A DNA stretch of 64,000 bases from a candidate division WOR-3 bacterium (GCA_027026255.1 JALVOT010000017.1:177670-241669); one strand, 5' to 3'; counted from the stretch's first letter, positions 14,479-39,236 are shown. Program-made: numbers and translations. The notes: generated by a model from the letters alone, not told the origin.

Positions 14479-14582
14479 TATTCCTCCTTTCTTCTTTTTA
14501 TTTTTATTTCTCACTACCAACGAATTTTTTATTTATCACCTCCTTGCTGAATTTTTAAATTTTTCTTCTTTACTAAAAGCAA

Positions 14583-15197: not shown

Positions 15198-15199
15198 TC

Positions 15200-16089: not shown

Positions 16090-16093
16090 TATT

Positions 16094-16732: not shown

Positions 16733-16785
16733 ACCTATCCTCCTTTCGTTTTTTTGCCTTTAATAAAAATTAATAAACAACAGTG

Positions 16786-16813
16786 AATTATATTAAAAAT
16801 TTCATAAATGTCA
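16786..16813 (-). promoter_or_regulatory. Sigma70-type promoter for the exbB-exbD-exbD-tonB unit, internal to the long minus-strand array.
   Basis: On the minus strand: TTGACA - 16 nt - TATAAT. A 5'UTR of about 50 nt follows, with a GAAAGGAGG Shine-Dalgarno. Confidence 0.6.
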
Positions 16814-16865
16814 AGAGTAAAAAACCTCATATTATCACCGATTTTTTGACTTAAGTCTTGTTCGG

Positions 16866-17216
16866 TTATCTTGAACTCGCGGTGTAATAGAGAAGCCCTC
16901 CGATAAGAGAAAAGATACCGGCACCCAAGAGAAAAAGACTCTCAATCCGGGCAAGATTCAGTGAACCGATAATCAAATCAAACAGGTTCGAGGGACCAGC
17001 GGTTCCCAGTAGAGGAAAGTAAAAAAGCATTCGGTAAATATGGAAAATCGCCAGGACGATTAAAAAAACTCCGCCGATAATCGGTAATATCCAGATCCCT
17101 TTGCCCTGAATCAGGATAAGAAGTCTTTTTATTATCAACCCATAAATCAAAAGAGCTGCTACGGTCAATAATATTGCAACGATGAAAAGTATCTCAGCCG
17201 GTATGTCTGCCTTCAT
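16866..17216 (-). CDS. Small polytopic membrane protein.
   Basis: 116-aa ORF consisting almost entirely of 3-4 hydrophobic helices. Confidence 0.5.
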   Translation of the reverse strand: MKADIPAEILFIVAILLTVAALLIYGLIIKRLLILIQGKGIWILPIIGGVFLIVLAIFHIYRMLFYFPLLGTAGPSNLFDLIIGSLNLARIESLFLLGAGIFSLIGGLLYYTASSR

Positions 17217-17243
17217 AAAACCTCCTTTTAAGACACAACAATT

Positions 17244-17615
17244 CTATTTACCTCTTGTAACTGCGTAAAATCTGAGATTGGCAACCAGCGAAAGAACCCC
17301 GGAGATAAAGAAAAACCCATAAGCAAGATAGTTAACCCCGGCCTTCGGCAACATTATCCTTCCACCAATACCGCAATAAAAAAGTTGAATAATCGCAAAG
17401 ATAAGGATACCCGTAGGTGCAATAATCATAAACTGCCAGTCTGTATGCTCACCCAGGACAATCTCATAGCGTCGGGCGATTATCCCCAAGAAGATGAAGG
17501 CAAGCCATAAAAGAACTGCTCCGAGTATAAGAAGAAAGTTGGGGACAACCGCCAGGGAATGATAGGTGTCCGGGTCCATTCCAAATGGCGCCATAATCAA
17601 CATAATCTGTAGCAT
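17244..17615 (-). CDS. Small polytopic membrane protein.
   Basis: 123-aa ORF with 4 predicted TM helices. Confidence 0.5.
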   Translation of the reverse strand: MLQIMLIMAPFGMDPDTYHSLAVVPNFLLILGAVLLWLAFIFLGIIARRYEIVLGEHTDWQFMIIAPTGILIFAIIQLFYCGIGGRIMLPKAGVNYLAYGFFFISGVLSLVANLRFYAVTRGK

Positions 17616-17649
17616 AAAACCTCCTGAAAATTTAAATAAATTTTTTAAT

Positions 17650-18234
17650 TCACTTCACAAGTTCTAATAATTTATTTGTCAAACTGGCTCCCCGGGATGG
17701 TCCGATAACCATACCTGCAGCCTTACCCAGGGCAAAGATAAAACGTCGGATATCATCCTCATATAGTTCATCAGGATTTATCTTCTGGGTCTTCAATTGA
17801 TTTTTATAGATTCTTTCTGTAAAATCCCCCAAGTAATCACTCATAACGGCCTTGATTTTATCCAGAAGTTCCGGACCCATTACCGACCCGGGTTTTTCTT
17901 CAGCTTCAGCTTCCGGCTTTCCTTTCAGTTCCTCAAGCAGGTTATAAAGTTGAGAAACATCCAGCCCGGCTCTGGAATCAAAAAGGGTTCCCACCAGAAA
18001 ATCATCTTCAAACTCTATAATTAAGGACTTCTTCTCACCCAGTATCTCCAGGGTATCAATCTTCACATCACCCACTGCATTGATTGTCTCAAAGAGCACA
18101 GTCGCGGTATGGGAAAATTTTTCAATCAGTGCCTCACCAGAACCGGTAGTGGAAACCTCACCGGAACTGGTTGCCGTAAAAGGACAGGGAAGTCCCCGGG
18201 ATTCAATCTTTTCCAATATATCTCTTTCTATCAT
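17650..18234 (-). CDS. Roadblock/LC7 (MglB-like) domain protein.
   Basis: 194-aa ORF. The N-terminal roughly 110 aa have the roadblock-like alternation, and an acidic C-terminal extension follows. The assignment comes from pattern and context, not from strict motifs. Confidence 0.4.
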   Translation of the reverse strand: MIERDILEKIESRGLPCPFTATSSGEVSTTGSGEALIEKFSHTATVLFETINAVGDVKIDTLEILGEKKSLIIEFEDDFLVGTLFDSRAGLDVSQLYNLLEELKGKPEAEAEEKPGSVMGPELLDKIKAVMSDYLGDFTERIYKNQLKTQKINPDELYEDDIRRFIFALGKAAGMVIGPSRGASLTNKLLELVK

Positions 18235-18914
18235 TTCATCCTTTCAATAACCGCCTGAACCTTAGCTCTTGCCTGGGATGAACCCATCTCTTCAACCGCC
18301 TCCTTTACCAGAAAGTCTATGATTGTGCGCAGTCCTTTAAGAAAATCTTCTTCTTTATCCTCAGGAGGTTTACTCTTAAAGACAAGTTTATTCTCAACAA
18401 TACCAACGAAAGGAAGCAAATCACCGGCGAACACAGTCAACCCCTTATTTAGACAATCAAGCCAATGTTTCAGATTTCCCTCACCGCCGAATTCACTCAC
18501 CAGAAGATTAATCTGACGCAGCTTGGAACTGAGACTTCGGGGAATCTCAGTCTTTGATTTTTCCTCTACCTCTACCTTTTTCTCTATCTCTACCTTTTCC
18601 TCTGCCTTCTTCCCGGCATCAGCCCGGATTCTTTCGATTATTGCCCGGGGATTGGCCTCGGCTTTAATCTCAAGACCAAGATATTTTGATTCATACAAAA
18701 AGATTAACAGCCGATTGCCGCCGTAATTGAATAATATGTATTTAATCTCACCAAGCTCCAGACTATTCTTTATCACCTCACCGGCTGATGAAAAAAAGGC
18801 GGTCAGGTCACCCAGAGGTCGGGATGAAGAACCCTTGACCTCTTCAACCGAACCATCCTCAGCATTGACAACCGCATACCCCAAAACCTCAACAATCTTA
18901 TCCAGTATCTCCAT
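18231..18914 (-). CDS. Roadblock/LC7 (MglB-like) domain protein.
   Basis: 227-aa ORF. The N-terminal region MEILDKIVEVLGYAVVNAEDGSVEEVKGS...GNRLLIFLYESKYLGLEIKAEANP resembles the LC7/roadblock fold. A charged C-terminal tail follows. Confidence 0.45.
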   Translation of the reverse strand: MEILDKIVEVLGYAVVNAEDGSVEEVKGSSSRPLGDLTAFFSSAGEVIKNSLELGEIKYILFNYGGNRLLIFLYESKYLGLEIKAEANPRAIIERIRADAGKKAEEKVEIEKKVEVEEKSKTEIPRSLSSKLRQINLLVSEFGGEGNLKHWLDCLNKGLTVFAGDLLPFVGIVENKLVFKSKPPEDKEEDFLKGLRTIIDFLVKEAVEEMGSSQARAKVQAVIERMK

Positions 18915-18916
18915 CG

Positions 18917-19762
18917 CTATTTTTCATTCTTCAACTTGTTGTTAAACTCTTCATATTTCTTTTTAAAAAGTAATTTGCCGTAGAGTTTTTGCCCTTCTTT
19001 TTTGAGGAACTGATTAAAATCCTTGAAAAAGTGTTCAATAATATCCTGCCCCACCTTGGCTCCAACCTTAATCTCTAAATATTCCTGCTCAATATGAAGG
19101 GCATTAAAGAGTGCTTTATTTTTCTCATCCAGTTCTGCCCACCGCTTTAACCAGTTGAATCCATTCTTCTTGAAGACCTCAAAAAACCTTTCCAGATAAT
19201 TTACCACCTTTGCCATCACCCGTTCCGCCTCTTTGGGGTCATAAATCAAACCCTTCTCCTTTAACCAGACAATGGTTTTGACCGCCTCATATCCTCCAAT
19301 CTTTGAACCGGCAATAACCTCGGCCAAACTCTTTTTACCATCAATAAGGGCGAGAACCTGCCAGTCGGTTCTTCTTAAAGCAACTGCAGATTCTAATTCC
19401 TTTGTTGACTTGGTGAGCACCGCGTCCATTGGGGGCAGATTATCTTTTATCTTCTGAAATTCAATACGCCGTTTTTCAATCCTTTCCCTTAACTTCCCCA
19501 CCCCTACGGAAATTGTCTGTTGCGGAGGTTCCACCCCGACATCAAAAGCCGCCTTTTCCGCCTCAATAAAAGAAAGATTGATTAACGCCTCCATCCCTTC
19601 CCGGGAACCGTCTGTAGCATGAACAACAAGCCCGTCCTTTAAAAATATCTCACCACCAATATTACCGAGCACCCTCAAAACCCCGGTCTTTTTAACCCGG
19701 CTGAGAAATTCCAGGACATCACCAAGTTTGAATTCCTGAAGGTCAATTTCAAAACAGGACAC
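18917..19762 (-). CDS. DUF4388-domain protein.
   Basis: 281-aa ORF. Its N-terminus (FKLGDVLEFLSRVKKTGVLRVLGNIGGEIFLKDGLVVHATDGSREGMEALINL) matches the DUF4388 pattern (G-L-x-x-F-x-L-x-D-L-L-Q-x-L ... G-x-L ... G-x-I-x-F-x-x-G). Confidence 0.6.
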   Translation of the reverse strand: MSCFEIDLQEFKLGDVLEFLSRVKKTGVLRVLGNIGGEIFLKDGLVVHATDGSREGMEALINLSFIEAEKAAFDVGVEPPQQTISVGVGKLRERIEKRRIEFQKIKDNLPPMDAVLTKSTKELESAVALRRTDWQVLALIDGKKSLAEVIAGSKIGGYEAVKTIVWLKEKGLIYDPKEAERVMAKVVNYLERFFEVFKKNGFNWLKRWAELDEKNKALFNALHIEQEYLEIKVGAKVGQDIIEHFFKDFNQFLKKEGQKLYGKLLFKKKYEEFNNKLKNEK

Positions 19763-20376
19763 TATATTATCCCCAACCAGTTATGAAGCAGAAAATAGAC
19801 CCGGCCGATTAAAAGGGAGATTCGCGCCATTACGGTATAACCAAATGAAGCACCAAATGAAACCATCATAAACCAGATTCCCACTTTTGCAGCAAAACCT
19901 AAGGTTCCTTTATGCTCCTTGGAAAAATAGAAATATATTAATGTAAAAACAACCCCGGCAATGATAAGAAGATTGGAAAAGACCTTGAATGGATGAATCC
20001 CGGCCAGGGGCAAAAATGTCGCCTGAAGTTGAGGCAGGATATCGCCTTGAATAATCTGGGTGATAAAAAGGGCCATTGAAATTCCCATCGTAAAGGTAAG
20101 GGGAATTCTTACCAACCAGCTCAGCTTTGGGATAAAAGGGGCAAACATCAAAAGTCCAATGATAATTGGAATAAGATAGACCATATTACCTTTGACAATC
20201 AGGGGTTCAAACAGATTGGGCCAGGCAAAATCAAACCAGAGAATCACTGCCCAATATCCTGCAGAAATACCAACAAAGATATGCTCGGCAACCTTATAAA
20301 ATGGGTTATCCTTATATAAAAATGAATAGATTGCCAGGGTCAAAAGGGAAGCAATCCAGACACCCAGAACCTCCAT
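19762..20376 (-). CDS. Polytopic membrane protein. Paralogue of 1334..1975.
   Basis: 204 aa; see the reciprocal alignment at 1334..1975. Confidence 0.65.
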   Translation of the reverse strand: MEVLGVWIASLLTLAIYSFLYKDNPFYKVAEHIFVGISAGYWAVILWFDFAWPNLFEPLIVKGNMVYLIPIIIGLLMFAPFIPKLSWLVRIPLTFTMGISMALFITQIIQGDILPQLQATFLPLAGIHPFKVFSNLLIIAGVVFTLIYFYFSKEHKGTLGFAAKVGIWFMMVSFGASFGYTVMARISLLIGRVYFLLHNWLGII

Positions 20377-21209
20377 TACCGTTTACTCCTTTGATAAACG
20401 AGAATCACATTTCCCAGAATAATAAATAGAACAAGCAGTGCATGAACAATTGACTGGGAATCCATACCGGCAAGTGCTCGACCCCTTCTTTTAACCAGGG
20501 TTTCATATTCCGCAGCACCCTTTAATCCACCCATAAGCCCCACCAACTGTCCTGATGCAAGATATGGATATTGCTGGGGAGCCATAATCGCTGTGGTTGC
20601 TGCACAGACCGGAATCCCGAATCGGGCGTGGAAATAGATAATCCAGTGCAGGACCCCGGGATCACCGGCTGATAAACTCATCACCAGCGCCATATCCCGG
20701 GCCGACTTCACCTCTTTACCCAGGGGCAAAGAATCGATCGGCACTCCAGCATAATCAGTTTTAACCATATCACCGACATTTTTCCCTAGGCTGAGCAGCA
20801 TCACCGGACCGCCTGGTTTATATCCTACATTAATATAATCAACTCCATACTTTTTATTGTAATGTGCCCCGATATTTTCCAATGCCATATTACCCAGGGG
20901 AGTTCCTGCGGGCCATAATGCAAGCATAAAGATGCGTAGATTTTTTCGAAAGCAGTGTTCAAGAAATGCCTCGGTTGCAGGATAAAGTTCCGCCTCACTT
21001 CCCGGGTCATAATCAATGGAAACAACCACCACCGAACCTTCAGGCAGGGACTCTACTTTATCATATATATTCTTAACCGGCTTTGTAATATCCACGGGCA
21101 GACCGATCGGGATAAGCAGCGGAACAATTACTGCAACGGCAACCAATAAAAAGATAATTCTTCGATCTAAAGCGGACAATCGGGCAAGTATATTATTCAC
21201 CTGCCCCAT
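20376..21209 (-). CDS. Bitopic membrane protein. Paralogue of 474..1337.
   Basis: The start is trimmed to the Met (MGQVNNILARL...) whose ATG overlaps the upstream stop. This is the same coupling as in the + strand copy. Confidence 0.6.
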   Translation of the reverse strand: MGQVNNILARLSALDRRIIFLLVAVAVIVPLLIPIGLPVDITKPVKNIYDKVESLPEGSVVVVSIDYDPGSEAELYPATEAFLEHCFRKNLRIFMLALWPAGTPLGNMALENIGAHYNKKYGVDYINVGYKPGGPVMLLSLGKNVGDMVKTDYAGVPIDSLPLGKEVKSARDMALVMSLSAGDPGVLHWIIYFHARFGIPVCAATTAIMAPQQYPYLASGQLVGLMGGLKGAAEYETLVKRRGRALAGMDSQSIVHALLVLFIILGNVILVYQRSKR

Positions 21210-21210
21210 A

Positions 21211-21834
21211 CTACTCCTTACCTCCGCCCATATAACTTCTCTCAATCCCTAATAAGACCCTCAAGCCCATAGAAATCATACCCAGGTCAATACCGAATAG
21301 AATTCCCCTTTTTGCTGCGGTATTGGGAACAGTCATTATCCATTCAACCAGATTGGGAAATCCATGCCAGATCCAGTAACCGATTGGAACCCGGCCGATC
21401 ATTACAAGCACGGCGGCAATCAAAAGCAGGGTCGCCTCAGGACTTCTGGCTCGAAACGCCCGAAATGCTGCTGAGGCGACAAAGAACGCCAGCAGTGAAA
21501 ACATCGTCGCACCCAAGGGAATCTGAACATTTTTGTAAAAATATAAAAACAATCCACCTTCGGGTCCGCCGATAAAACCGGCTGCCATCATAACCAGGAG
21601 GCAGATTAAAAGAATGATGCTGTACTGCCAATCCCTTAATCTTCTCTGAATCTTTTCAAGATTTATCTTAATGATATTAAATATTCCGATAAAGATAAAG
21701 AATGCCATCACCCCAATATACCAGTTCTGAAAGGTCTGGGATGTATCCTGAATTCCTTTCAAGGGAATAAAGAAACTTACCAGCATAAAGAAACCAAATC
21801 CAAAAACCACGATTATCGGTAAAATACTTTTCAT
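21211..21834 (-). CDS. Polytopic membrane protein. Paralogue of 1..477.
   Basis: 207 aa with 5-6 TM helices. Confidence 0.65.
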   Translation of the reverse strand: MKSILPIIVVFGFGFFMLVSFFIPLKGIQDTSQTFQNWYIGVMAFFIFIGIFNIIKINLEKIQRRLRDWQYSIILLICLLVMMAAGFIGGPEGGLFLYFYKNVQIPLGATMFSLLAFFVASAAFRAFRARSPEATLLLIAAVLVMIGRVPIGYWIWHGFPNLVEWIMTVPNTAAKRGILFGIDLGMISMGLRVLLGIERSYMGGGKE

Positions 21835-22913
21835 TATCTTGTTGTCTTAAAAAGGTTATAAAAATATTGATTGCCTAAGAGTCTTGTAATAACGCCAATC
21901 ACAATCACCAGAATAAATATCAGTTTGCCAAAATCCTGTCCTTTTAAAGAGCCAATTTGAATCGGTTCCTGGGATAGATAGGCACTTGCCGCATAAAGCT
22001 CTTCACCGAGCAGGGTGTAATCACAGGCCGCCACGAAGAATGGTAATTGATCAGGCATCGCCGTTCCTGCAATCTGGATTGCGCCGGTATAATGTCCGGT
22101 CTCAGCCAGAATGAGTGATTCTGCATAAAAGCAGCCGAGATAGAGATTGGTTGCCGGTTTCTCTCGAACCATCATACCATCCACCGCAGAGACATAACCG
22201 AACTGGTCGTCAGTAAGATACCGGATATTATCGGCATTAAACCAGTCAGGTCTTCCCACCTTGGTCGCTGACTCTTTAACTACCTGCTGCGCCATACTCA
22301 TCGCCATCGCCTTACTGGTCGGCACATAAAGTGGGGTGCCGTATTCTGCAGTCTTTTCCGCAACCCTGGCAAGGATACTCATCGCGGCAATGGTCTGGGG
22401 ATTATCGATATCCATTATCCCGGGGACAAACAGCACCGGCTTACCCATCTCAGTCGCCCGACCGATCGCCTCTTCGACCGCTGTAAGGGCTGGAATCTTT
22501 CTGATGTATAACTTTTCACCCTTGCGGGCACGGGAAATGTAGAAAAGAATTACGGCGAACAGGATAATCATACAGACGGCAATATTCAGACGGCCAAGAT
22601 TGAAAATCTGGGCAATCGGCCTTACCGGCCCCGCAGTATTTGAAAAAAACACCGTATCCAATCCGGCGCCTTTGATGCGATAATAATATTTAGTTCCGGC
22701 CTTTACCGCGGTATCCACATAGGTTGTCTTACCCGATTCAACCCGGGCGATCTCTTTAAAATCATGCTCCGGGAAGATACTGCGCAGGATTTGATAACTA
22801 CTTATTAATGTATCACTACTCCAGGACAGTGTAATACTGGAACCGTCGTCATTGGGTGTATCATAAACATCAAGACTTATCCCCTGCACCAGTATTAATA
22901 ATATCAAAAACAT
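21834..22913 (-). CDS. Membrane protein with an N-terminal fibronectin-III-like domain, two TM segments and a central domain of about 200 aa. First gene of the long minus-strand array.
   Basis: 359-aa ORF. The FN3-like region is SITLSWSS...YYYRIKGAG, followed by a TM helix LNIAVCMIILFAVILFYI. A leaderless sigma70 promoter lies immediately upstream. Confidence 0.5.
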   Translation of the reverse strand: MFLILLILVQGISLDVYDTPNDDGSSITLSWSSDTLISSYQILRSIFPEHDFKEIARVESGKTTYVDTAVKAGTKYYYRIKGAGLDTVFFSNTAGPVRPIAQIFNLGRLNIAVCMIILFAVILFYISRARKGEKLYIRKIPALTAVEEAIGRATEMGKPVLFVPGIMDIDNPQTIAAMSILARVAEKTAEYGTPLYVPTSKAMAMSMAQQVVKESATKVGRPDWFNADNIRYLTDDQFGYVSAVDGMMVREKPATNLYLGCFYAESLILAETGHYTGAIQIAGTAMPDQLPFFVAACDYTLLGEELYAASAYLSQEPIQIGSLKGQDFGKLIFILVIVIGVITRLLGNQYFYNLFKTTR

Positions 22914-22959: not shown

Positions 22960-23364
22960 CTTACTCCTCTCCACTTTTTTCATTGTGCCTCCCGGATTAA
23001 TTGCAACGGTATTCTGGACAGAATAAATTTCCCTGAGATTATTAAACCAGGACGAAAAATACTCAACAACTTCGTTTTACTTTTTTATATTATTTTATTG
23101 GTCATTTGAAAAATTTCTCTACCATCTTTACTTGGTCCCATTTTCTCAGCGCGGACGGCATTTCCATTTTCTCAGCGCGGGCGGCGTTTCCATTTTTCTC
23201 AGCGCGGGCGGCGTTTCTCATTTTTCTCAGCGCGGGCGGCGTCCCCGCCGCCCGCTGGAGGTTTATCATTCCTGCAGCCCGCCAGGCGCCCTGCCTCGGG
23301 ACGGGACGCCCCCCGGCTATATTGTACTTACAAAAAGCCGGGACAAAAAGTGGAGGGAAATCAG
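22960..23364 (+). repeat. Repeat element copy A. It is full length and carries four 27-bp tandem units.
   Basis: Left terminal inverted repeat (TIR) CTTACTCCTCTCCACTTTTT, right TIR AAAAAGTGGAGGGAAATCAG. Internally, TTTTCTCAGCGCGGGCGGCGTTTCCAT-type units repeat four times and end in the hairpin GCGGGCGGC-gtcccc-GCCGCCCGC. Confidence 0.85.
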
Positions 23365-25862: not shown

Positions 25863-26897
25863 TCAATATAGTGCAATTCTTTCTTTTAAAAACTCGGGTG
25901 AAAGTTTACCTTCCGACACCAATCTCCTTTTTGACTGTTCAAGGTTTTGCATGCCAAACTGACGCCCGGTCTGGATTACCGATTCAATCTGATGTACCTT
26001 TTCCTCACGAATCAGATTGCGCACCGATTGGGTTGCAATCATAATTTCAAATGCCGCAACCCGACCGGAGCTGTCCCGGCGTGGATATAGCCTCTGGGCA
26101 ATCACCGCCTGCAGTGATTCAGAAAGTTGCAGCCTGATTTGATTCTTCTGACCGGCAGGGAAGATATCAATTATTCTTGTGATGGTCTTGGCGGCGCTTG
26201 ATGTGTGCAGGGTAGCAAAAACTAAATGGCCGGTCTCAGCCGCGGTCAGGGCAAGTGAGATTGTCTCCAAATCCCGCATCTCACCGACCAGAATATAATC
26301 AGGGTCCTGACGCAGGGCGCTTCTTAAGGCAATAGAAAAAGAGTGAGCATTGGTTCCCAATTCCCGTTGATTAACCACACATTTTTTTGAATGATGGATA
26401 TACTCAATCGGGTCCTCGATTGTGATAATATGACCTTCTTTATTAGAGTTTAGAAAATCAATCATCGCTGCCAATGTGGTAGATTTACCACTGCCGGTGG
26501 GTCCGGTAACAAGTATTAAACCATAATCAAGATTAATCACTTCTTTAATTATTCTGGGGAGCCCGATCTCTTCCATATCAGGAATTTTTGTCGGAATGAT
26601 TCTAAAGACGGCAGCCAGACCCTGCCTCTGATAAAATACATTCACCCGGAATCTTCCCAATCCAGAAAATTCTAAGGAAAAATCAATCTCCCTGGTCTTT
26701 TGCAATTCTACTTTTTGGCTTTCTGACAAAATCTGATTGATAAACATTTCGATGATTTCATTATCAAGTAATTCTTTATTCAGCGGCTGCATCCGACCAC
26801 ATACCCTCAGCATAATCGGAGAACCGGCGCTGAGATGGAGGTCACTCGCCTTCTGCTCAACTGAATATCCAAGTAATTCCCTGATATCATTCTTCAT
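25863..26897 (-). CDS. pilT: Type IV pilus retraction ATPase PilT.
   Basis: 344-aa ORF with the Walker A motif GPTGSGKSTT and PilT-type length and signature regions. Confidence 0.9.
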   Translation of the reverse strand: MKNDIRELLGYSVEQKASDLHLSAGSPIMLRVCGRMQPLNKELLDNEIIEMFINQILSESQKVELQKTREIDFSLEFSGLGRFRVNVFYQRQGLAAVFRIIPTKIPDMEEIGLPRIIKEVINLDYGLILVTGPTGSGKSTTLAAMIDFLNSNKEGHIITIEDPIEYIHHSKKCVVNQRELGTNAHSFSIALRSALRQDPDYILVGEMRDLETISLALTAAETGHLVFATLHTSSAAKTITRIIDIFPAGQKNQIRLQLSESLQAVIAQRLYPRRDSSGRVAAFEIMIATQSVRNLIREEKVHQIESVIQTGRQFGMQNLEQSKRRLVSEGKLSPEFLKERIALY

Positions 26898-27468
26898 ATT
26901 GTTTCTCCAATTCGATTATAATCTTCACATTCCCCTTCTTTTTTTGTTTACCATCTTTATCTTCAATCTCAATGACCGCCTGGTCGGCTCGTATCTCAAT
27001 CCTTTGCCTCTGTTTAATCGAGGTTTCAATTACCGCCTCCGTCCCTTTATGAAGAAAAAATTTATTGAGTATTTGTTCAATCTTAGCCGGGTCTGCCCCG
27101 GATACTACTACATCTTTATTGAGAGTCTTTTTAATTTTTTCAATAACCGAAATATTCGTCGGGTCACCGATAACTACATAAATCTTGTTCTCGGTCTGAT
27201 AAAGCGGCAGGATGCAGTTGTCCAGTAAAAGTTTTTCAGGGAATTTACTGATTAATTGATTATCGAACATCTCCGGATTCAATTGAACAAAAGGGATATC
27301 CGCCTGTTCACTCAACATCCAGAAAAGATCACTCGAAGATATATAGCCCAGTTCAATCAAAATTTCACCGAGGCGTTTTCCTTTCTCTTTCTGTAATTTC
27401 AAAGCGGTATCAAGCTGTTCCTGAGTAATAATTCCATACTTCACCATCATCTCACCCAGAAGAAACAT
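26887..27468 (-). CDS. Stand-alone T2SSE_N/MshEN-like domain protein (putative c-di-GMP receptor).
   Basis: 193-aa ORF with tandem 24-residue motifs YGIITQEQLDTALKLQ and RLGEILIELGYISSSDLFWMLSEQ. These match the MshEN consensus RLGxxLLxxGLLxxxxLxxxLxxQ. Confidence 0.65.
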   Translation of the reverse strand: MFLLGEMMVKYGIITQEQLDTALKLQKEKGKRLGEILIELGYISSSDLFWMLSEQADIPFVQLNPEMFDNQLISKFPEKLLLDNCILPLYQTENKIYVVIGDPTNISVIEKIKKTLNKDVVVSGADPAKIEQILNKFFLHKGTEAVIETSIKQRQRIEIRADQAVIEIEDKDGKQKKKGNVKIIIELEKQYEE

Positions 27469-27470
27469 TC

Positions 27471-27830
27471 CTATACCCCTATCAATTCAAAGACCTTGGA
27501 CTTCAAGGCACTGATATCAATCGGCTTGGTGATAAATGCCGCAACATCCGAAGTCTTAACCACCATATCATCTTCCATCAAACGATAGGCTGAGCATATA
27601 ATAATAGGAATATTCTTATTCCTTTCCCTTATCCGTTCAATCGCCTCAAGACCATGGGTCCCCGGCATCTTGATATCAATAATGAGCAGGTCAAATGATT
27701 CCCGGGTAATAAGTTTCACCGCCTCCCGACCATCAACCGCCTCACTTATGTCATAGTCATCTCCTAAGGTTTCCCTTAACAGGAGTCGAATCGACTCCTC
27801 ATCATCACAGACCAAAATCCTTTTCTTCAT
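27471..27830 (-). CDS. Single-domain response regulator (CheY-like receiver).
   Basis: 119-aa ORF with the receiver-domain residues DD...D...K (ILVCDDEESIR, LLIIDIKMPG, ITKP). Confidence 0.85.
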   Translation of the reverse strand: MKKRILVCDDEESIRLLLRETLGDDYDISEAVDGREAVKLITRESFDLLIIDIKMPGTHGLEAIERIRERNKNIPIIICSAYRLMEDDMVVKTSDVAAFITKPIDISALKSKVFELIGV

Positions 27831-29410
27831 AAAACCTCCTTTTTCACCCTGGGCAGATAGACCCGGCAGGTCGTTCCAATATTTTCCTTACTGGTTATCT
27901 CAATCTTTCCCTGATAGTCATCAAGAATCTTTTTTACGATTGCCAGACCAAGACCGGTGCCCCGTTGTTTTGTCGTAAAGAAAGGTGTGAAAAGATTCTT
28001 CAAATTTTCTTCAGGTATACCATTACCATTATCGATAATTTCAGTAACACAGAAATCACCGTCTTCGGAAAATCTTATCTTCAAAATACCCTGCTCACCC
28101 ATCGCCTCACAGGCGTTATTAATTAGATTGACGAAAACCCTTCGGATTGATTCAGGGTCACCCCGGATGATCGGTTCGACACCTTCAATCGAAATCTTCA
28201 CATTTTTCAAATCCTTAACAATCGCATCGATTAATGATTTCAGGTTGATCCGGGATAGAACAACCTGACGCCGGGCTCTTCCGAATGCCAGAATATCATC
28301 AATTATATTATTAATTCTTCGAGTGCCCTTTTGAATCTCGGCACTAAACTGTCTTATTTTTTCTTTATCCTCGGTTGTCTGTAAGAGCTGGGCGAAACCG
28401 TCAATTGAGGTTAAAGGATTTCTTATCTCATGGGCAACCCAGCTCGCCATCTTTCCTAAGTAGGTTAAACGTTCAGCATGTTTCAACTTCTGTTCCAATG
28501 CCTTGATTTCAGAAAGGTCCTTTAATATAACAACGCATCCGGAAAATCGATGTTCTGCACCGGTAATCGGTGATATCGAGAAACCGATCGGCACGGACTT
28601 ATCATTTTCAACTGTGATTAAAACCTCATCCCTCTTTATGGTTTCACCGGTCTCCATCGCATGCGCTATCTTCTCCCAAAAATTATTAAGTCTCTCAATA
28701 TTCTTAATATTGGTTCCTTCAGCCTCTTCTTTATTCAATCTCAGAATCCGTGCCGCCTCCGGGTTAATAGTGGTAATAACCCCATCATTGCGTATCGCAA
28801 TTACGCCGCTGGAGACACTGTTTATTATCTTCTCACTGTATTTACGCAGTTCAATCTCTTCAGCCGCAACCCGGGCAACCTCCTTTTTTAAGGCGATATT
28901 AAACCTTTCTAAATCTTCCTTCTCTTTCATCGCCTTACGGGTGGCACTCGACCAATAACTGCTGATAAGAGAAATAATAAAAAAGAAGGGAACCCGGATA
29001 AGGATTGCCGAATCGAGCAATGAAATTCCCGGTTTTGATCGATATATAAGCCAGCCGTAGAGGATACTGGCAACAATCGCAATCGGTAAACTACCACCAA
29101 TATCCTGCCCCACCGATGCGATGAAGATTACAAGAAAATAAATCAGATAAAAATCGGTCTGCATCCCCTCGCTGAAATAGATTGCCAGAGAGATGATAAT
29201 AATATCAAAAAGGAATATGCCAAATGTAGCATAGGGGCGATTGAATAACCTTTCAGGAAGATAATAGAATATAAGGTTTGAAATAAAATAGACGAGCGCG
29301 ATGATATAGCCCGGTTCCGTGGGTTTAAGACCCTTCTTTGCATAGGTCATCACCAAAATCGTGGTCAGGATTAGAAAAAATCTTAAGAATAGCAATGTCC
29401 TCTTATTCAT
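27827..29410 (-). CDS. Membrane-bound sensor histidine kinase (PAS plus HisKA plus HATPase).
   Basis: 527-aa ORF with 5-6 N-terminal TM helices. The H-box is HEIRNPLTSIDGF, and the N/G-boxes are NLINNACEAM and GTGLGLAIVKKIL. Confidence 0.85.
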   Translation of the reverse strand: MNKRTLLFLRFFLILTTILVMTYAKKGLKPTEPGYIIALVYFISNLIFYYLPERLFNRPYATFGIFLFDIIIISLAIYFSEGMQTDFYLIYFLVIFIASVGQDIGGSLPIAIVASILYGWLIYRSKPGISLLDSAILIRVPFFFIISLISSYWSSATRKAMKEKEDLERFNIALKKEVARVAAEEIELRKYSEKIINSVSSGVIAIRNDGVITTINPEAARILRLNKEEAEGTNIKNIERLNNFWEKIAHAMETGETIKRDEVLITVENDKSVPIGFSISPITGAEHRFSGCVVILKDLSEIKALEQKLKHAERLTYLGKMASWVAHEIRNPLTSIDGFAQLLQTTEDKEKIRQFSAEIQKGTRRINNIIDDILAFGRARRQVVLSRINLKSLIDAIVKDLKNVKISIEGVEPIIRGDPESIRRVFVNLINNACEAMGEQGILKIRFSEDGDFCVTEIIDNGNGIPEENLKNLFTPFFTTKQRGTGLGLAIVKKILDDYQGKIEITSKENIGTTCRVYLPRVKKEVL

Positions 29411-29442
29411 TTTAAACTCCTTTAGACTTAAGTATATAATAA

Positions 29443-29470
29443 ATTATAACTAAATTTTTTAATTTGTCAA
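29443..29470 (-). promoter_or_regulatory. Sigma70-type promoter in front of the kinase gene.
   Basis: On the minus strand: TTGACA - 16 nt - TATAAT. A GC hairpin (29487..29510) lies just upstream. Confidence 0.5.
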
Positions 29471-29564
29471 TGCCCAATAATATCCCGGGCCGGGGTGTGT
29501 GCCCCGGCCCAAAAGGAGAAGGTAGAAAAATATACATCTGCTGACCACCTTTACAGGAATCCCG

Positions 29565-30842
29565 TTACATTCGTAAAAAGGCTTTTACAACCGTTGGGTC
29601 AAGTTGTGTACCCGCTACCCTTTGTAATTCCTTTTTTGCTTCGATTCTACTGAACCGCTTCCGATACGGCCGATCACTTATCATTGCTGAATATGTATCA
29701 CACACTGAAAGAATCCTGGCATTTAACGGTATACGATTTCCCTTGAGTCCTGCAGGATAACCTCGACCATCCCAGCGTTCATGATGATAATGAATCCAGG
29801 AACGGATCGACTGCAGTTGAACCAAGGGTTCAATAATTCTGGCACTCTTTTCTGGATGCTGTTTTATTATCTTCCACTCATTATCACTAAGTGGTCCAGG
29901 CTTCTGTAAAATACTTTCAGGCACGGCAATCTTTCCAACATCATGGAGCAGTCCTGCATATCTGATTAACTGCAGTTCCCGTTCTGAAAAATCGAACGCC
30001 TTGCCCAGCTGAAATGACAGATTGGCGACCTGAAGTGAATGTCCCCTTGTGTAGCTGTCTCTAATCTCGATTGCCTGCACCAGGGCAAGCACCGACTCAA
30101 AATTCACCTCCTCTAATCTTTTAATAAACCGCTCCCGGTCAAGGGCAATTCCGATCTGTCTGCTGATACCGTTAATAAACTGAATTTCTTCTTTATTATA
30201 AGAAAACCGTTTATTAGAATACAATGTCAGAATCCCGACCGGGACTCCTCCCTTGGTGATTACCGGTGCAGCAATACAGGACTTAAATTGACCGACCAGG
30301 TCTCCATCATCTTTAAATAACAAAGGACCGCGATTATTCAGAATCGACTGCAGCAATCGCTCTTTTTGATTAATAATTATATTTTGAGAAAACTCCGGCT
30401 CAAGATTTTGCGATACAAGAAGATTTAAATTCCTGCCGTCCTTATTTATTACAAAAAGGCCGATTCCATCCGGGGACAGATTCTTTGACAGTTTCTCCAT
30501 AACCACATTCATTACACCATTATTACTAAAACTGGAAAGTATGGCCTGATCTACCTCCTGCAGGGATTTTAAACGCACCAGACTTTCTTGATGTTCCCTA
30601 ACCATCCTTAGAATAGCAACTATACCAATCAACCAGAGAATACTAATCCCGGAGAGACAGAAATTCAATAATAGATTAGTACTGTGTCTTCCATAGCCGC
30701 CTTCTATCCCTATCAACACCATAAATATCATCCCCAAGGCAATAAATATCCGGGCAATTCCCAGCCTCTTTCTAACCCGCAACAGGATAAATATACCGAT
30801 TGCCAATTCCAGGATAATTGAGATAAAAAAGGCTGACTTCAT
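29565..30842 (-). CDS. Membrane-anchored GAF-domain HD-GYP phosphodiesterase (c-di-GMP hydrolase).
   Basis: 425-aa ORF. The HD-GYP core is IRDSYTRGHSLQVANLS...LLHDVGKIAVPESIL...HHERWDGRGYP. Confidence 0.85.
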   Translation of the reverse strand: MKSAFFISIILELAIGIFILLRVRKRLGIARIFIALGMIFMVLIGIEGGYGRHSTNLLLNFCLSGISILWLIGIVAILRMVREHQESLVRLKSLQEVDQAILSSFSNNGVMNVVMEKLSKNLSPDGIGLFVINKDGRNLNLLVSQNLEPEFSQNIIINQKERLLQSILNNRGPLLFKDDGDLVGQFKSCIAAPVITKGGVPVGILTLYSNKRFSYNKEEIQFINGISRQIGIALDRERFIKRLEEVNFESVLALVQAIEIRDSYTRGHSLQVANLSFQLGKAFDFSERELQLIRYAGLLHDVGKIAVPESILQKPGPLSDNEWKIIKQHPEKSARIIEPLVQLQSIRSWIHYHHERWDGRGYPAGLKGNRIPLNARILSVCDTYSAMISDRPYRKRFSRIEAKKELQRVAGTQLDPTVVKAFLRM

Positions 30843-30860
30843 TTATCGGTTTAAACCCGG

Positions 30861-31061
30861 TCAGCTGGCAAATGCATAGACCCTTTGCCAGCCTATATCA
30901 TGGATTGAAACTATGCCGTTATAGAAGAGCCGCAGTTTCTGCTCAACCGAACTCTGTCTCAGTTTTAATACAATCATCTTATCATCTTTATATGCAATCT
31001 CACCCTGATACCGGGTTCCGTCCACCAGCCTTACCTCATACAGATGCAGTGCCTTCATCAT
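30861..31061 (-). CDS. Small protein of unknown function.
   Basis: The start is chosen at MMKALHLYEV, which is preceded by GGGGG and the stop of the upstream peptide gene. Confidence 0.4.
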   Translation of the reverse strand: MMKALHLYEVRLVDGTRYQGEIAYKDDKMIVLKLRQSSVEQKLRLFYNGIVSIHDIGWQRVYAFAS

Positions 31062-31071
31062 AACCCCCAGA

Positions 31072-31284
31072 TTAATCGATTGGCGGCGGCGGTTGAGGCG
31101 GTGGAATAATACCATCGGCATCCGAATCAGAATCAGCAAAACAGGAAACCGGGGTGAGCGCCTGAAGCACCGAGCCGACAACCGGCGCCTTCTTTACTGT
31201 ATTTATCTGCGGTGACTGAAGTCCGATACCCAGAACACCGCCCAAGAACAATACAATCAATAGATAGATTAAAAGATGCTTCAT
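31072..31284 (-). CDS. Small secreted Pro-rich peptide (70 aa).
   Basis: Signal peptide MKHLLIYLLIVLFLGGVLG, a strong Shine-Dalgarno AAAAGGAGG, and the C-terminal tail DSDSDADGIIPPPQPPPPID. The gene sits directly downstream of a sigma54 promoter. Confidence 0.6.
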   Translation of the reverse strand: MKHLLIYLLIVLFLGGVLGIGLQSPQINTVKKAPVVGSVLQALTPVSCFADSDSDADGIIPPPQPPPPID

Positions 31285-31309: not shown

Positions 31310-31326
31310 GTGCAAAATCCGTGCCA
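31310..31326 (-). promoter_or_regulatory. Sigma54 (RpoN) -24/-12 promoter.
   Basis: The minus strand reads TGGCACG-GATT-TTGCA, a perfect match to TGGCACG-N4-TTGCW. It lies about 25 nt upstream of the small peptide ATG and is followed by an RBS. Confidence 0.75.
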
Positions 31327-31378
31327 GACCATTTTGTCTGGAATTTCAAGGTTTTGCCGAAAAAAGACAAACAAAAAA

Positions 31379-31395
31379 TGTGCCAAAATGGCACA
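31379..31395. promoter_or_regulatory. Palindromic upstream activator sequence 1 (candidate enhancer-binding-protein site).
   Basis: TGTGCCA-AAA-TGGCACA. This is a perfect 7-bp inverted repeat about 65 bp upstream of the -24 element. Confidence 0.55.
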
Positions 31396-31448: not shown

Positions 31449-31465
31449 TGTGTCATTTTGGCACA
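31449..31465. promoter_or_regulatory. Palindromic upstream activator sequence 2.
   Basis: TGTGTCA-TTT-TGGCACA (one mismatch to site 1), about 135 bp upstream of -24. Another TGTGCCA half-site follows at 31468..31474. Confidence 0.5.
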
Positions 31466-35815: not shown

Positions 35816-36331
35816 ATGAAAGGGATATCAAGGGTGATTCTATTTAAATATTTGACTCCTCAAGAAGTAAACTGGATGCTGGTAAAATGGCAGCCCAAGG
35901 AAGTGCGTGAGGGCACGGTTATTATTAAAGAAGGAACAACCGGTGATGAGATGTACATTATTGAATCAGGTAAGGTCGAGGTCTATCTCACCCGGGGAGA
36001 TGTTGTGCTTCTTCTGTCTGAATTGCAAGAGGCATCATTCTTTGGGGAAATGACCCTGCTAACCGATAAGCCTCGTTCCGCAACGGTTAAGGCAAAAACA
36101 AATTGTCGGTTACTGATCCTGAAAAAACAGGAATTTATGAAAATTATTGATGAGAATCCCCGGATTGCAGCAAAATTTCTTATGGCAATGGGTGAAGACC
36201 TTTCCAATCGAATAATGGCGACCAATGCCAATTTAGAAAATTATTTTCTGATAAATCAGGCGATTGTCGATAACAAATCCTTTCGGGATCTTTATATCCT
36301 TACCCATAAGGCCCCATCGTCTAGCGGTTAG
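35816..36331 (+). CDS. Cyclic-nucleotide-binding domain protein.
   Basis: 171-aa ORF with the cNMP-binding signature (FGEMTLLTDKPRSATVKA). There is no obvious DNA-binding HTH. The 3' end overlaps tRNA-Glu. Confidence 0.7.
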   Translation: MKGISRVILFKYLTPQEVNWMLVKWQPKEVREGTVIIKEGTTGDEMYIIESGKVEVYLTRGDVVLLLSELQEASFFGEMTLLTDKPRSATVKAKTNCRLLILKKQEFMKIIDENPRIAAKFLMAMGEDLSNRIMATNANLENYFLINQAIVDNKSFRDLYILTHKAPSSSG

Positions 36332-36381
36332 GACATCACTCTTTCAAGGTGGAGACACGGGTTCGATTCCCGTTGGGGCCG
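36310..36381 (+). tRNA. tRNA-Glu (anticodon UUC).
   Basis: The cloverleaf is GGCCCCA-UC-GUCUAGCGGUUAGGAC-A-UCACU-CUUUCAA-GGUGG-AGAC-ACGGG-UUCGAUU-CCCGU-UGGGGCC-G. Its Glu-type D-arm is closely similar to E. coli tRNA-Glu. Confidence 0.85.
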
Positions 36382-36404
36382 TATTATTTAATTAAGGAGG
36401 AATT

Positions 36405-38474
36405 ATGAAGAAGCTGTTCTTGGTATTATTAACGGTGCCTTTCCTGCTCCTTGCTCAGGAGATTACCATCTATGGAAATCATGGAATGTTCCGGATACAG
36501 TATGCCCAGCCCCATAATATGGGTATGTTCTCATTCCATTTTGCTCCTCAGGAAAGGTTTGAGAGTTTTAATGTTCAAATCAATGGTCAGACCACAACAG
36601 ACCGACGCCACTATTTTGATTTAACCACTGGATTATCCTATGCAATTACCGATTTCCTTGAAACCCGGTTTCATGCCACGCCGTTTACGAAATGGTATGA
36701 AGCAAATGATTACCCTGAAGAGAGAGGGGACCCTTATCCACCGATTGGGGTCAAAGACTTAGAGCTCGGCGCCAAAGGAGGTTATCTCTTTGCTGTTGAT
36801 AAACAGACACCAATCTCTTATGCGTTGGGTGTTGATGCCTATTTAAGATTTGGCCCGGGTCTTTCTAAAGATTACTTTTCCAATGCCTGGAACAATGACC
36901 GTGCATTATATGCAGATACCTTCCATCATATTGCCCCGCATTTTCCACCCTATATACCCCATGACCCTGATTACGGCGTAACCGGACTTTTCGACTTTCG
37001 AATCGGCCCTTTTGCCACCCACTTCAATGTTGGATACTGGTCCACAGGCCGGGACATAAATCCTGGTTATGTCCGTTATGAAGATATGCACCAGAGACCT
37101 GATTACATAACCAACGCCGCAGGTATTGAGCTGTTACCGTCTGACGATATTAGAATTCTTTTTGAGGCATACGGACTTTTTGATACTGACGCAAGTACGG
37201 AATCATTATGGGTGACCCCGGGGTTGCGATTCGGTGCGCATAGTGTCAGCTTTGATTTAGGATGTGATCTGGGAATAGTTAACCCTGATATTCATACCCC
37301 ATTCTGGTGGAAAGCATTCTTTAACTTATCTACAGGTGCCGATCTGGTCAAAAAAGTAGAAGTCCATATACCTGTGGCGAAAGTTTCCGGTAAAGTAATT
37401 GATTCCCAGACCGAAGAACCGGTTGCTGCGACCATCACCTTCCCGGGTTCAGATAAAGAACCGATAAAAACATCTGCTGATGGTTATTATGAAACAACAT
37501 TCTCGCCGGGCACCTACCGACTCCATTTTGCCGCCCCTAATTACCGCTGGCAGGAAAAAGGTGTGGTCTTAAAGGATGGAGACCAGATTATCCTGGATAT
37601 TAAACTGCATCGCAAACTTGTCACCAAAATTATCGGTAAAGTCTATGATATTGATACCAAGGAACCTCTAATCGCCCAGATCAGCTTTCCTCAGACGAAA
37701 TTTAAACCAATCACCACAGATACTGCAGGTTTCTATTCTGCCACCCTGGGTCCGGGTATATTCCGAATTCATGTTGAGGCAACCAATTATCAATTTGGCG
37801 AAAAGGTGATTACCTTAAAATCCGGTGAATCAAAGGTTGTCGATATTGGATTAAAGAAACTCGGTGTTGCCCAGGCAATATTAACCGGTAAGATTTCCGA
37901 TGTGAAGACTGGAAAACCGCTCCTTGCCCAGGTTACATTCGTGGGCACAAAGATTCCCGTTGTTACAACCGACCCCGGCACCGGTATATATAAGGTAACG
38001 GTTCCACCGGGAACATATTCATTAAAAATAACTGCAGAAAACTATGTACCGGAGAGTGCTCCAATTGTGCTTAAAAAGGATGAGACGAAAATTCAAAATT
38101 TCTCCCTGAAGCCGATACCCAAAGTCGGTGAAAAGATAATTCTTAAGGGAATCTACTTTGACTTCAATTCAGCAGTAATAAAACCTGAATCCTATCCGGT
38201 TCTGGACGACGCAGCCAGGATCCTCAAGGCGAAGCCCAATATGCGGGTAGAAATCGGTGGTCATACCGATAGCATCGGTTCTGATTCCTATAATATGAAA
38301 CTCTCATATCAGCGGGCGAATGCGGTAAGGGATTATCTGATACGCTACCACAATATTGACCCATCAAGGTTGATTGCGGTCGGTTATGGAGAAACCAGAC
38401 CGATTGCCGACAACCGAACCAGGGCGGGTCGGGATCTGAACCGTCGAATTGAGTTCAAGATCTTAAGCTGGTAG
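36405..38474 (+). CDS. OmpA-family outer-membrane protein with four carboxypeptidase-regulatory-like (CarbopepD_reg) repeats.
   Basis: 689-aa ORF with a signal peptide and four repeats of the type KVSGKVIDSQTEEPVAATITFPG...DGYYETTFSPGTYRL. The C-terminal OmpA domain is GIYFDFNSAVIKPES...GHTDSIGSDSYNMKLSYQRANAV. Confidence 0.85.
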   Translation: MKKLFLVLLTVPFLLLAQEITIYGNHGMFRIQYAQPHNMGMFSFHFAPQERFESFNVQINGQTTTDRRHYFDLTTGLSYAITDFLETRFHATPFTKWYEANDYPEERGDPYPPIGVKDLELGAKGGYLFAVDKQTPISYALGVDAYLRFGPGLSKDYFSNAWNNDRALYADTFHHIAPHFPPYIPHDPDYGVTGLFDFRIGPFATHFNVGYWSTGRDINPGYVRYEDMHQRPDYITNAAGIELLPSDDIRILFEAYGLFDTDASTESLWVTPGLRFGAHSVSFDLGCDLGIVNPDIHTPFWWKAFFNLSTGADLVKKVEVHIPVAKVSGKVIDSQTEEPVAATITFPGSDKEPIKTSADGYYETTFSPGTYRLHFAAPNYRWQEKGVVLKDGDQIILDIKLHRKLVTKIIGKVYDIDTKEPLIAQISFPQTKFKPITTDTAGFYSATLGPGIFRIHVEATNYQFGEKVITLKSGESKVVDIGLKKLGVAQAILTGKISDVKTGKPLLAQVTFVGTKIPVVTTDPGTGIYKVTVPPGTYSLKITAENYVPESAPIVLKKDETKIQNFSLKPIPKVGEKIILKGIYFDFNSAVIKPESYPVLDDAARILKAKPNMRVEIGGHTDSIGSDSYNMKLSYQRANAVRDYLIRYHNIDPSRLIAVGYGETRPIADNRTRAGRDLNRRIEFKILSW

Positions 38475-38484
38475 AAATTTAAAA

Positions 38485-38513
38485 GAGGGGGCATTTAGCC
38501 CCCTCTTTTTTTA
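38485..38513 (+). terminator. Intrinsic terminator.
   Basis: GAGGGGGC-attta-GCCCCCTC followed by T7. Confidence 0.8.
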
Positions 38514-38699
38514 TTCCATTCTAAAAAATCTCCGTCTTTTATATATTCACAATTTTTTGTTTCCCTCACAACATCTTATCTTCTTGACTTCACTTTTTTC
38601 AAATTTGCAGTGTATTTTCGGTTTGTAAATTTAAATATATACTACTTAACAACCGTGTATAATTAAATACAATCCATCCATAATAATGAATATCCCTTT

Positions 38700-39236
38700 T
38701 CATTTAATTAAATAATTCCTGCATAAGGCAATTAGATATATTAAAATAATAATCAAAACAGTCGGCCATTCTGCTTTTAAGTTTCTCAGTTGAAATTTTT
38801 CTTTTTTTGTTGTTAGATTTTTCAGATAACGGGTTTCCGCATTGCTGATGATTGAATACTCGGCGATAAAGCAGAGAATAATTATTATTGACAACCAGGG
38901 TTGAGGGTTGAATAGAATTATTACGCCGCAGACAAGAAAGAAATTGCCGAAGTAAATCGGATGTTTTAAAAGTTTGAATGGACCATTTTCTATTTTAGAT
39001 TCTGTATTGAATTCTGAACCCCTCGATTTTTGACCCAGATATCCAACTGCCCATAACCTCAGACCAATACCTGTTATAATAAATGGAATTGACGACAAAT
39101 TCGCTTCCCGGGCAAAAATAATAATTAAAATAAAAAACGGCGCCGGGATGATGCCACGATGGTGATATAAAAAATGTCCTAAATTATAGATTTTTTTCAA
39201 CCCTATTGATTGGTCGATAGATATAATAATCTCCAA
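38700..39236 (-). CDS. Isoprenylcysteine carboxyl methyltransferase-family (ICMT/PEMT-like) membrane methyltransferase.
   Basis: 178-aa polytopic ORF. Its C-terminal region NGPFKLLKHPIYFGNFFLVCG is typical of the family. Confidence 0.6.
   Translation of the reverse strand: MEIIISIDQSIGLKKIYNLGHFLYHHRGIIPAPFFILIIIFAREANLSSIPFIITGIGLRLWAVGYLGQKSRGSEFNTESKIENGPFKLLKHPIYFGNFFLVCGVIILFNPQPWLSIIIILCFIAEYSIISNAETRYLKNLTTKKEKFQLRNLKAEWPTVLIIILIYLIALCRNYLIK

Follow-up and report, generated by a model that had tools for sequence, protein, structure and literature searches.

To date, control of type IV pili (T4P) by cyclic di-GMP (c-di-GMP) has been linked to the extension ATPases MshE, PilB and PilF or to adaptors binding them. 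In Vibrio cholerae, the receptor domain MshEN forms the N-terminus of the extension ATPase MshE, and the retraction ATPase PilT is affected only indirectly (PMC5013675, PMC7096442, PMC8851539). The locus described here, on a 64,000-nucleotide stretch of DNA (GCA_027026255.1 JALVOT010000017.1:177670-241669; hereafter the window) from a bacterium that homologues place in candidate division WOR-3 (now Caldifarciminota/Stahliibacteriota), encodes a receptor that shares this fold and the tandem motif of 24 residues. In contrast to Vibrio, MshEN is at this locus a separate protein of 193 residues with an extra β-hairpin, its gene overlaps pilT, and a gene for a receiver (REC) lies upstream. The output of both systems would be the same, the balance between pilus extension and retraction, with a phosphodiesterase (CdpA for the Vibrio mannose-sensitive hemagglutinin (MSHA) pilus, an HD-GYP protein here) driving retraction by lowering c-di-GMP. 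Judged from the sequence, the arrangement is a variation on the known MshEN-type control of pilus ATPases by c-di-GMP and points to an undescribed second-messenger control of retraction.

In the FimX-PilZ-PilB system of Xanthomonas (PMC8389850, PMC5595344), too, the c-di-GMP signal reaches the pilus ATPase through separate, trans-acting proteins, but these are a degenerate EAL protein and a PilZ adaptor, and they act not on PilT but on the N-terminal domain of PilB. The three building blocks of the WOR-3 locus recur in the same order in the REC-MshEN-T2SSE ATPases of WOR-3 and other organisms and in Thermus PilF with its multiple GSPII domains (PMC11731258); REC-MshEN proteins also occur in WOR-3 and elsewhere. 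The fused ATPases are single polypeptides with an ATPase of the PilB/GspE type (∼100-130 bits to the PilT of the window), whereas the WOR-3 locus encodes three proteins and an ATPase of the PilT type. PilS-PilR is a two-component system controlling pilin genes via sigma54, and PilG and PilH are CheY-like proteins of the Chp system of Pseudomonas. The former resembles several WOR-3 loci in which a polytopic PAS kinase of ∼530 residues is accompanied by an NtrC-type activator and a sigma54 promoter; however, the promoter targeted in WOR-3 drives genes for kinase, response regulator, MshEN and PilT rather than pilin, and the likeness in hidden Markov models (HMMs) is generic, at the AtoS/AtoC level only. 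With PilG and PilH, the WOR-3 loci share a single-domain receiver associated with pilus ATPases, but have no CheA-type kinase.

As an earlier note on this DNA had claimed, the locus comprises seven co-directional open reading frames (ORFs; 25863-31284); they follow one another on the minus strand, and identical gene calls were obtained independently on the source metagenome contig. From 5′ to 3′, they encode a proline-rich peptide, an Sm-like protein of 65 residues, a GAF-HD-GYP protein, a histidine kinase, a REC-only response regulator, the MshEN protein and PilT. Domains were called with Pfam and NCBIfam profiles and judged against curated cut-offs; every family-assigned domain scored above its own cut-off, and the HD-GYP, kinase, response regulator, MshEN and PilT assignments of the note all hold. 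The last four genes are the following:

27827-29410, minus strand: sensor histidine kinase of 527 residues with ∼5-6 transmembrane segments, PAS, HisKA and HATPase_c
27471-27830, minus strand: REC-only (CheY-like) response regulator of 119 residues, 4-nt overlap with the kinase stop codon
26887-27468, minus strand: MshEN protein of 193 residues, with a four-helix c-di-GMP-motif subdomain (1-55), MshEN_C (58-125), a long helix and a C-terminal β-hairpin (155-187)
25863-26897, minus strand: PilT retraction ATPase of 344 residues, start overlapping the MshEN gene by 11 nt, internal Shine-Dalgarno sequence GGAG 7 nt 5′ of the pilT ATG

By profile scores and motifs, the ATPase is a bona fide PilT. 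It reached 476 bits with TIGR01420 (cut-off 319), whereas the PilB/GspE models scored 156-163 bits, below their cut-offs; likewise, P. aeruginosa PilT (3jvu) matched over the full length with 397 bits, and PilB chains with ∼110. The translation contains the Walker A, Asp box, Walker B and His box sequences GPTGSGKST, IITIEDPIE, DYILVGEMRD and GHLVFATLHT as well as SVRNLIRE (of the AIRNLIRE type), and no N1 domain.

For the MshEN protein, the earlier note would have counted failure of the MshEN-like motifs at an HMM threshold as a refutation, but they passed: NF053729 (“c-di-GMP_motif, MshE-related”) gave 71 bits against 38 over residues 4-55, and Pfam MshEN (PF05157) 51.4 against 23.1 over residues 57-141. 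The AlphaFold2 model (pLDDT 82) has the four-helix N-terminal and α/β C-terminal subdomains of the MshEN fold, and residues 1-140 superpose on MshE with bound c-di-GMP (5htl_B; Foldseek E 7e-9, template modeling (TM) score 0.78, target-normalized) and on PilF GSPII-B (TM score 0.80). The C-terminal β-hairpin (155-187) has no counterpart in either structure. Wang et al (PMC5013675) defined the c-di-GMP-binding motif as two 24-residue stretches RLGxx(L/V/I)(L/V/I)xxG(L/V/I)(L/V/I)xxxxLxxxLxxQ separated by a 5-residue spacer. In the WOR-3 protein, the half-motifs L3-Q26 and R32-Q55 are offset by exactly 29 residues, which corresponds to that spacer; the second fits the relaxed pattern, and the first does so except at position 1, where Leu takes the place of R/K/P/N. 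The hydrophobic, Gly and Gln positions are kept without exception, and Q18, L19, L23, Q26, G34, L48 and Q55 are invariant in the family. Binding of c-di-GMP by this protein, as predicted from its sequence, is likely but not certain.

The family (∼190-205 residues) is found in WOR-3, in metagenome-assembled genomes (MAGs) labeled Stahlbacteria and in unclassified MAGs; its members are 41-69% identical to the protein of the window and share 20 invariant columns. Since they are also of full length, the gene being a pseudogene or a pilB remnant was rejected. When 1.84 billion representatives were searched with a profile, only about five 50%-identity clusters matched along the whole length, hairpin included. 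Outside the WOR-3 lineage, all relatives retrieved were N-termini of full-length PilB, sometimes in the order pilB-pilT, which suggests that the WOR-3 MshEN gene may have arisen from a pilB through loss of the part for the ATPase. A paralogue of 150-154 residues without the hairpin never adjoins pilT and occurs in unrelated contexts; the hairpin marks the PilT-linked subfamily and is the obvious candidate for a contact with PilT. One paralogue of 154 residues, at the TA06 locus L028 (4535-5660, 8562-9017; related loci are given here by our own handles), is directly followed on its 3′ side by a Pfam-confirmed DUF6982 gene, and two ORFs upstream share the HFKDG...KGYT motif of the DUF6982 N-terminus. 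A DUF6982 protein is also encoded in the window (59695-60138), and the L028 arrangement hints at a second MshEN partnership.

Conservation of gene order was assessed by calling ORFs in 26 related genome loci and ∼30 related metagenome loci, two sets that share contigs, and scoring them against the proteins of the window. A full-length MshEN gene was followed by pilT in all 26 genome loci and in 22 of 22 metagenome loci with readable downstream sequence; a 119-residue REC gene lay directly 5′ of MshEN in all but a few loci, and the kinase 5′ of the response regulator in most. The intervening gaps are minimal (median 1 nt from response regulator to MshEN; median −1 nt, range −17 to +7, from MshEN to PilT). 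L013, a degraded locus, has lost the kinase and has a truncated response regulator, but keeps the MshEN-PilT pair. HD-GYP genes were present within 8 kb of the module at 13 of the 26 genome loci and at several metagenome loci. Chance juxtaposition of MshEN and pilT was rejected on the grounds of this synteny. As far as these sequences go, the RR-MshEN-PilT arrangement is lineage-wide in WOR-3 and so far confined to that candidate phylum; the literature searches returned no paper on a free-standing MshEN paired with PilT.

The features upstream of the kinase gene are the following:

31449-31465, minus strand: distal enhancer-like dyad TGTGCCAAAATGACACA, overlapping the palindrome TGGCACATATGTGCCA
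31379-31395, minus strand: proximal enhancer-like dyad TGTGCCATTTTGGCACA, centered ∼62 nt 5′ of the −24 box
31339-31349, minus strand: TTGAAATTCCA box, a variant of the TGAAATTTCA-like motif, directly 5′ of the −24 element (read from the sequences)
31311-31326, minus strand: sigma54 −24/−12 promoter TGGCACGGATTTTGCA, 26 nt 5′ of the peptide ATG
31072-31284, minus strand: peptide of 70 residues with an N-terminal transmembrane/signal helix and a C-terminal polyproline stretch, PPPQPPPPID
30861-31058, minus strand: Sm-fold protein of 65 residues (65/66), an Hfq-like five-strand barrel of a WOR-3-specific family
29565-30842, minus strand: GAF-HD-GYP protein of 425 residues with three N-terminal transmembrane segments, a predicted membrane-anchored c-di-GMP phosphodiesterase
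29483-29514, minus strand: GC-rich hairpin with a 13-bp stem and a T-poor tail (−26 kcal/mol, z = −2.9)
29443-29470, minus strand: sigma70-type promoter TTGACA-16-TATAAT (12/12), 3′ of the hairpin and 5′ of the kinase

The HD-GYP protein scored 143 bits with HD_5 (PF13487; cut-off 27), and LLHDVGK and HHERWDGRGYP are intact in its translation, as expected of an HD-GYP domain. The kinase has about five hydrophobic segments within residues 1-150, and in most loci orthologues reach 620-970 bits. Its best NCBIfam match is AtoS (293 bits, cut-off 646), and activators neighboring it in L004 and L014 match AtoC with ∼430 bits (cut-off 714), both below cut-off; PilS or PilR models were not among the matches listed for the kinase and these activators, which limits the likeness to architecture. 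The response regulator consists of a Response_reg domain alone, with the acceptor residues DD/D/S/K readable in the translation.

The promoter ahead of the peptide gene, which the earlier note had postulated, is the sole exact consensus match in the 64 kb (0.03 expected), and it is kept at the same position in L002, L003, L012, L013, L082 and L083. The pattern TGTGCCA-N3-TGRCACA occurs at just two sites in the 64 kb, namely the two dyads, which are 70 bp apart (0 expected). The orthologous promoters of L003, L013 and L083 are preceded by equivalent pairs with a spacing of ∼64-70 bp; those of L002, L012 and L082 have less regular upstream repeats. The site thus combines GG-N10-GC, upstream dyads and conservation in orthologous loci, as a sigma54 promoter with enhancer should. 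In some loci, a sigma54 promoter directly precedes the kinase gene and an NtrC-type activator is encoded next door. The internal sigma70 promoter and GC hairpin that the note had placed before the kinase were likewise found; L002 has the same stem with a different loop, and the sigma70 promoter is conserved there. The hairpin is a candidate weak terminator, attenuator or RNA-stability element. Of the “sigma54-driven array”, the promoter before the first gene stands; the array itself is the junction of two separately conserved modules with the hairpin and the sigma70 promoter between them, and transcription of all seven genes from the sigma54 promoter is therefore only putative.

The second module, peptide/Sm-like/HD-GYP, stands alone in L082 and L083. 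It is linked to the PilT module, HD-GYP and kinase included, in the window, L002, L003, L092 and L112, and without the kinase in L012 and L098; the order peptide-Sm-RR-MshEN-PilT without intervening genes is found in L095 and, as far as the contigs extend, in L090 and L093. L083 retains the cNMP-binding, OmpA-like, PEMT and PMT_2 neighbors found in the window at 35816-40623, which indicates that the peptide/Sm-like/HD-GYP unit has moved. A protein of ∼1600 residues (Pkinase, TPR, GAF, Sigma54_activat, HTH_8) adjoins the peptide and Sm-like genes, and usually HD-GYP genes, in L003, L082-L084, L092, L095, L098, L106 and L112, and the intergenic region beside it holds a sigma54 promoter wherever it was read (L003, L082, L083).

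We regard it as an evenly balanced proposition that these genes form a lineage-wide WOR-3 regulatory operon in which c-di-GMP and phosphorylation gate PilT via a trans-acting MshEN protein and a receiver. The 193-residue protein would be the detached, trans-acting version of the N-terminal c-di-GMP domain that MshE, PilB and PilF carry in cis, and would bind PilT, probably via the subfamily-specific hairpin. The CheY-like receiver, phosphorylated by the adjacent membrane-bound PAS kinase, would act on the same MshEN-PilT complex, so that c-di-GMP and phosphorylation together would gate the activity or docking of PilT. A distant enhancer-binding protein, in relatives the adjacent ∼1600-residue Ser/Thr-kinase-TPR-GAF-AAA+ protein, would switch on the sigma54 unit (peptide, Sm-like protein, GAF-HD-GYP), and this unit would lower c-di-GMP. 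By analogy with the MSHA pili of Vibrio (PMC7096442, PMC8851539), our guess is that c-di-GMP-bound MshEN restrains PilT and that induction of the phosphodiesterase (low c-di-GMP) releases retraction. That response regulator, MshEN and PilT work as one unit is our strongest inference; the REC-MshEN-ATPase gene order repeats the domain order of the fused proteins. The MshEN-PilT adjacency, the recurring HD-GYP neighbors, and the conserved sigma54 promoter and dyads strengthen the proposal of the earlier note that the locus is a dedicated circuit. More tentatively, and in our view rather doubtfully, the 193-residue protein could be the first dedicated c-di-GMP receptor for a retraction motor: a detachable N1/MshEN domain that, dependent on c-di-GMP and a phosphorylated CheY-like partner, docks PilT to the pilus platform or removes it from there via the β-hairpin, in a device placed under a giant Ser/Thr-kinase-sigma54 activator, with the upstream peptide perhaps itself regulatory (of the arrest or signal type). 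A free-standing MshEN genetically locked to PilT and a receiver would offer a simple, purifiable three-protein system for testing direct control of PilT by second messenger and phosphorylation, and the module a functional handle on signaling in WOR-3, of which a single member has been cultured.

Several observations weigh against joint gating of PilT as proposed. We infer the MshEN-PilT and RR-MshEN contacts from gene order and domain content alone, and among the 150 best of 30,702 profile hits no MshEN was fused to a PilT-type ATPase, those containing an ATPase being all PilB-like. No Sigma54_activat domain is encoded within the window, and the hairpin and sigma70 promoter between the units suggest that expression of the HD-GYP unit need not be tied to that of the PilT unit. 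Half-motif 1 begins with Leu in the protein of the window and with Leu, Met or Phe, and not with Arg or Lys, in 26 of the 76 family members with both half-motifs, and the N-terminal basic patch is absent from that protein and from this minority; loss of the patch and of the first-position Arg may reduce affinity for c-di-GMP. Arg9 of V. cholerae MshE, which occupies that position, stacks on one guanine (PMC5013675). Lastly, the window contains neither pilB, pilC or pilM-Q nor a pilin or any other gene for pilus structure or extension; the earlier note had recommended a search for such genes, and PilB-like and pilin-like genes are found in other WOR-3 genomes.

MshEN might be a free c-di-GMP receptor whose target is not PilT, the pairing reflecting a shared regulon. 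The missing fusion would fit this, as would the partners of MshEN/N1 domains in GspE and PilB, which contact platform proteins or PilZ (the Foldseek matches include PilB(N)-PilZ, 7lkm, and EpsE(N)-EpsL, 2bh1), and the lack of c-di-GMP half-motifs in the L020 copy, the sole WOR-3 REC-PilB-like ATPase examined. We nevertheless consider it unlikely that the two are merely co-regulated, since operon membership rarely yields 100% adjacency with junctions of −17 to +7 nt at about 43-70% MshEN identity to the protein of the window, and since even the degraded L013 retains MshEN-PilT as the surviving pair. That MshEN is an adaptor without nucleotide sensing, a structural PilT dock of the N1 type controlled by the phosphorylated receiver alone, would account for the altered position 1 of half-motif 1, and many MshEN domains, for example that of XpsE, have indeed lost binding (PMC5013675). 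However, the other motif positions are conserved, none of the disabling substitutions of the XpsE type is present, the reported changes at Arg9 shifted affinity less than fivefold (PMC5013675), the NCBIfam c-di-GMP-motif model was passed at nearly twice its cut-off, and HD-GYP genes co-localize with the module, all of which makes a purely structural role quite improbable. Finally, the absence of pilus genes, which extends to the flanks of ∼45 related loci, and the finding that PilT can promote extension of the MSHA pilus in Vibrio (PMC9815625) could mean that the ATPase does not retract T4P but serves another PilT-dependent process (a pseudopilus as in type II secretion, or DNA uptake) or is a split extension motor with MshEN in trans. 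We think this very unlikely given the full-length match to P. aeruginosa PilT at the same length with the AIRNLIRE-type motif intact, the separate PilB/GspE-like ATPases and pilin-like gene in WOR-3, and the pili on the WOR-3 isolate (PMC12285271). Control of PilT by the MshEN protein and the receiver remains the reading we prefer.

With respect to the remainder of the pilus machinery, a scan for prepilin motifs found a pilin neither in the window nor in the WOR-3 flanks, clustering of flanking ORFs gave no conserved pilus neighbors, and the window has no GGDEF gene. WOR-3 genomes do encode Hpt and REC-MshEN-T2SSE ATPases, a pilin-like N_methyl protein, REC-GGDEF and REC-HD-GYP; the N_methyl gene adjoins a REC-PilB-like ATPase gene, and one MAG carrying the module has REC-GGDEF and REC-HD-GYP genes on another contig. 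Pili were observed on the first WOR-3 isolate (PMC12285271); literature searches turned up nothing on them in the WOR-3 genome survey. In another WOR-3 MAG (L086, 6984-13648), genes for H-NOX (HNOB), a hybrid kinase, Hpt, a REC-MshEN-T2SSE-REC ATPase and a pilin-like N_methyl protein are co-linear, which suggests that sensing of NO or another gas feeds a PilB-like motor.

The first two genes of the sigma54 unit belong to families without a Pfam or NCBIfam match. The peptide family keeps the N-terminal helix, an A(Y/F)ADSD core and the C-terminal polyproline, and orthologues lie 5′ of the Sm-like gene in L002, L003, L005, L013, L082-L084 and L092-L098. In the window, L002, L003, L005, L013 and L082-L084, the polyproline run ends just before the stop codon, directly 5′ of the next gene. 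Arrest peptides of the SecM/MifM/VemP type monitor secretion, and it is purely speculative that the layout of the WOR-3 peptide, a transmembrane/signal helix with terminal polyproline, recalls them. The Sm-like family (∼64 residues) comprises 30 homologues with 55-82% identity and 16 invariant columns, and all members with a named source are from WOR-3. The AlphaFold2 model (pLDDT 86.7) matched Hfq chains best in Foldseek (E ∼4e-3, TM score ∼0.6), but the protein being Hfq was rejected: there is no Hfq profile match, no Sm2 YKHAI motif in the alignment and no N-terminal helix in the model, and the likeness is one of shape only.

The giant activators (L082, 101-4942; L083, 2714-7567; L095, 70-4818; L106, 6922-11784) have an unusual architecture in that a Ser/Thr kinase-TPR-GAF part is fused to a sigma54 AAA+ activator and HTH_8. 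At the promoters, a TGAAATTTCA-like palindrome lies ∼10-20 nt 5′ of the −24 box in the window, L002, L004, L013, L014, L016, L082 and L083, at both peptide-type and kinase-type sigma54 promoters; IHF or some other factor could bind there, or the promoter could be extended in a way specific to the lineage. A GAAATTTCA-like box precedes the −24 element in L003, L082, L083 and many other loci. In L014, L016, L018, L021, L023 and L029, TTGACA-N16/17-TATA(C/T)T follows the sigma54 element and abuts the predicted kinase ATG, which implies that the start was set wrongly, that the transcript is leaderless or that the element is a conserved operator. An Rfam scan detected three tRNAs only and no riboswitch in the leaders. 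The GC-rich palindromic element GGGGCGTCYCGCCCCG... was matched seven times (23297, 31865, 35703, 45086, 46795, 54423 and, weakly, 42373; 0.03 expected), mostly in gaps between ORFs, one copy lying between ileS and the sigma54 enhancer; it looks like a repetitive extragenic palindrome or a shared terminator.

Elsewhere in the window, four tandem copies of a ∼27-nt repeat (23136-23254) occupy the gap between a DUF6754 operon and acyl-CoA dehydrogenase genes. A co-directional cluster on the minus strand (13441-22913) begins with DUF6754 and passes through six ORFs that lack annotation, one of them for a PatA_N/DUF4388 protein (18917-19762); PATAN domains are regulators of pilus motors in cyanobacteria. 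The cluster continues with ExbB-ExbD-ExbD-TonB and an ORF of 359 residues without a family match, directly 5′ of a CarboxypepD_reg/Plug receptor-like gene (10670-13468), and may encode an energized outer-membrane or motility device. Cargo proteins with a Por_Secre_tail, as for type IX secretion, are encoded at 2041-6465 and 60484-63375, among them an LVIVD-repeat protein and a gingipain-like C25 peptidase; the organism therefore probably has a type IX secretion system.

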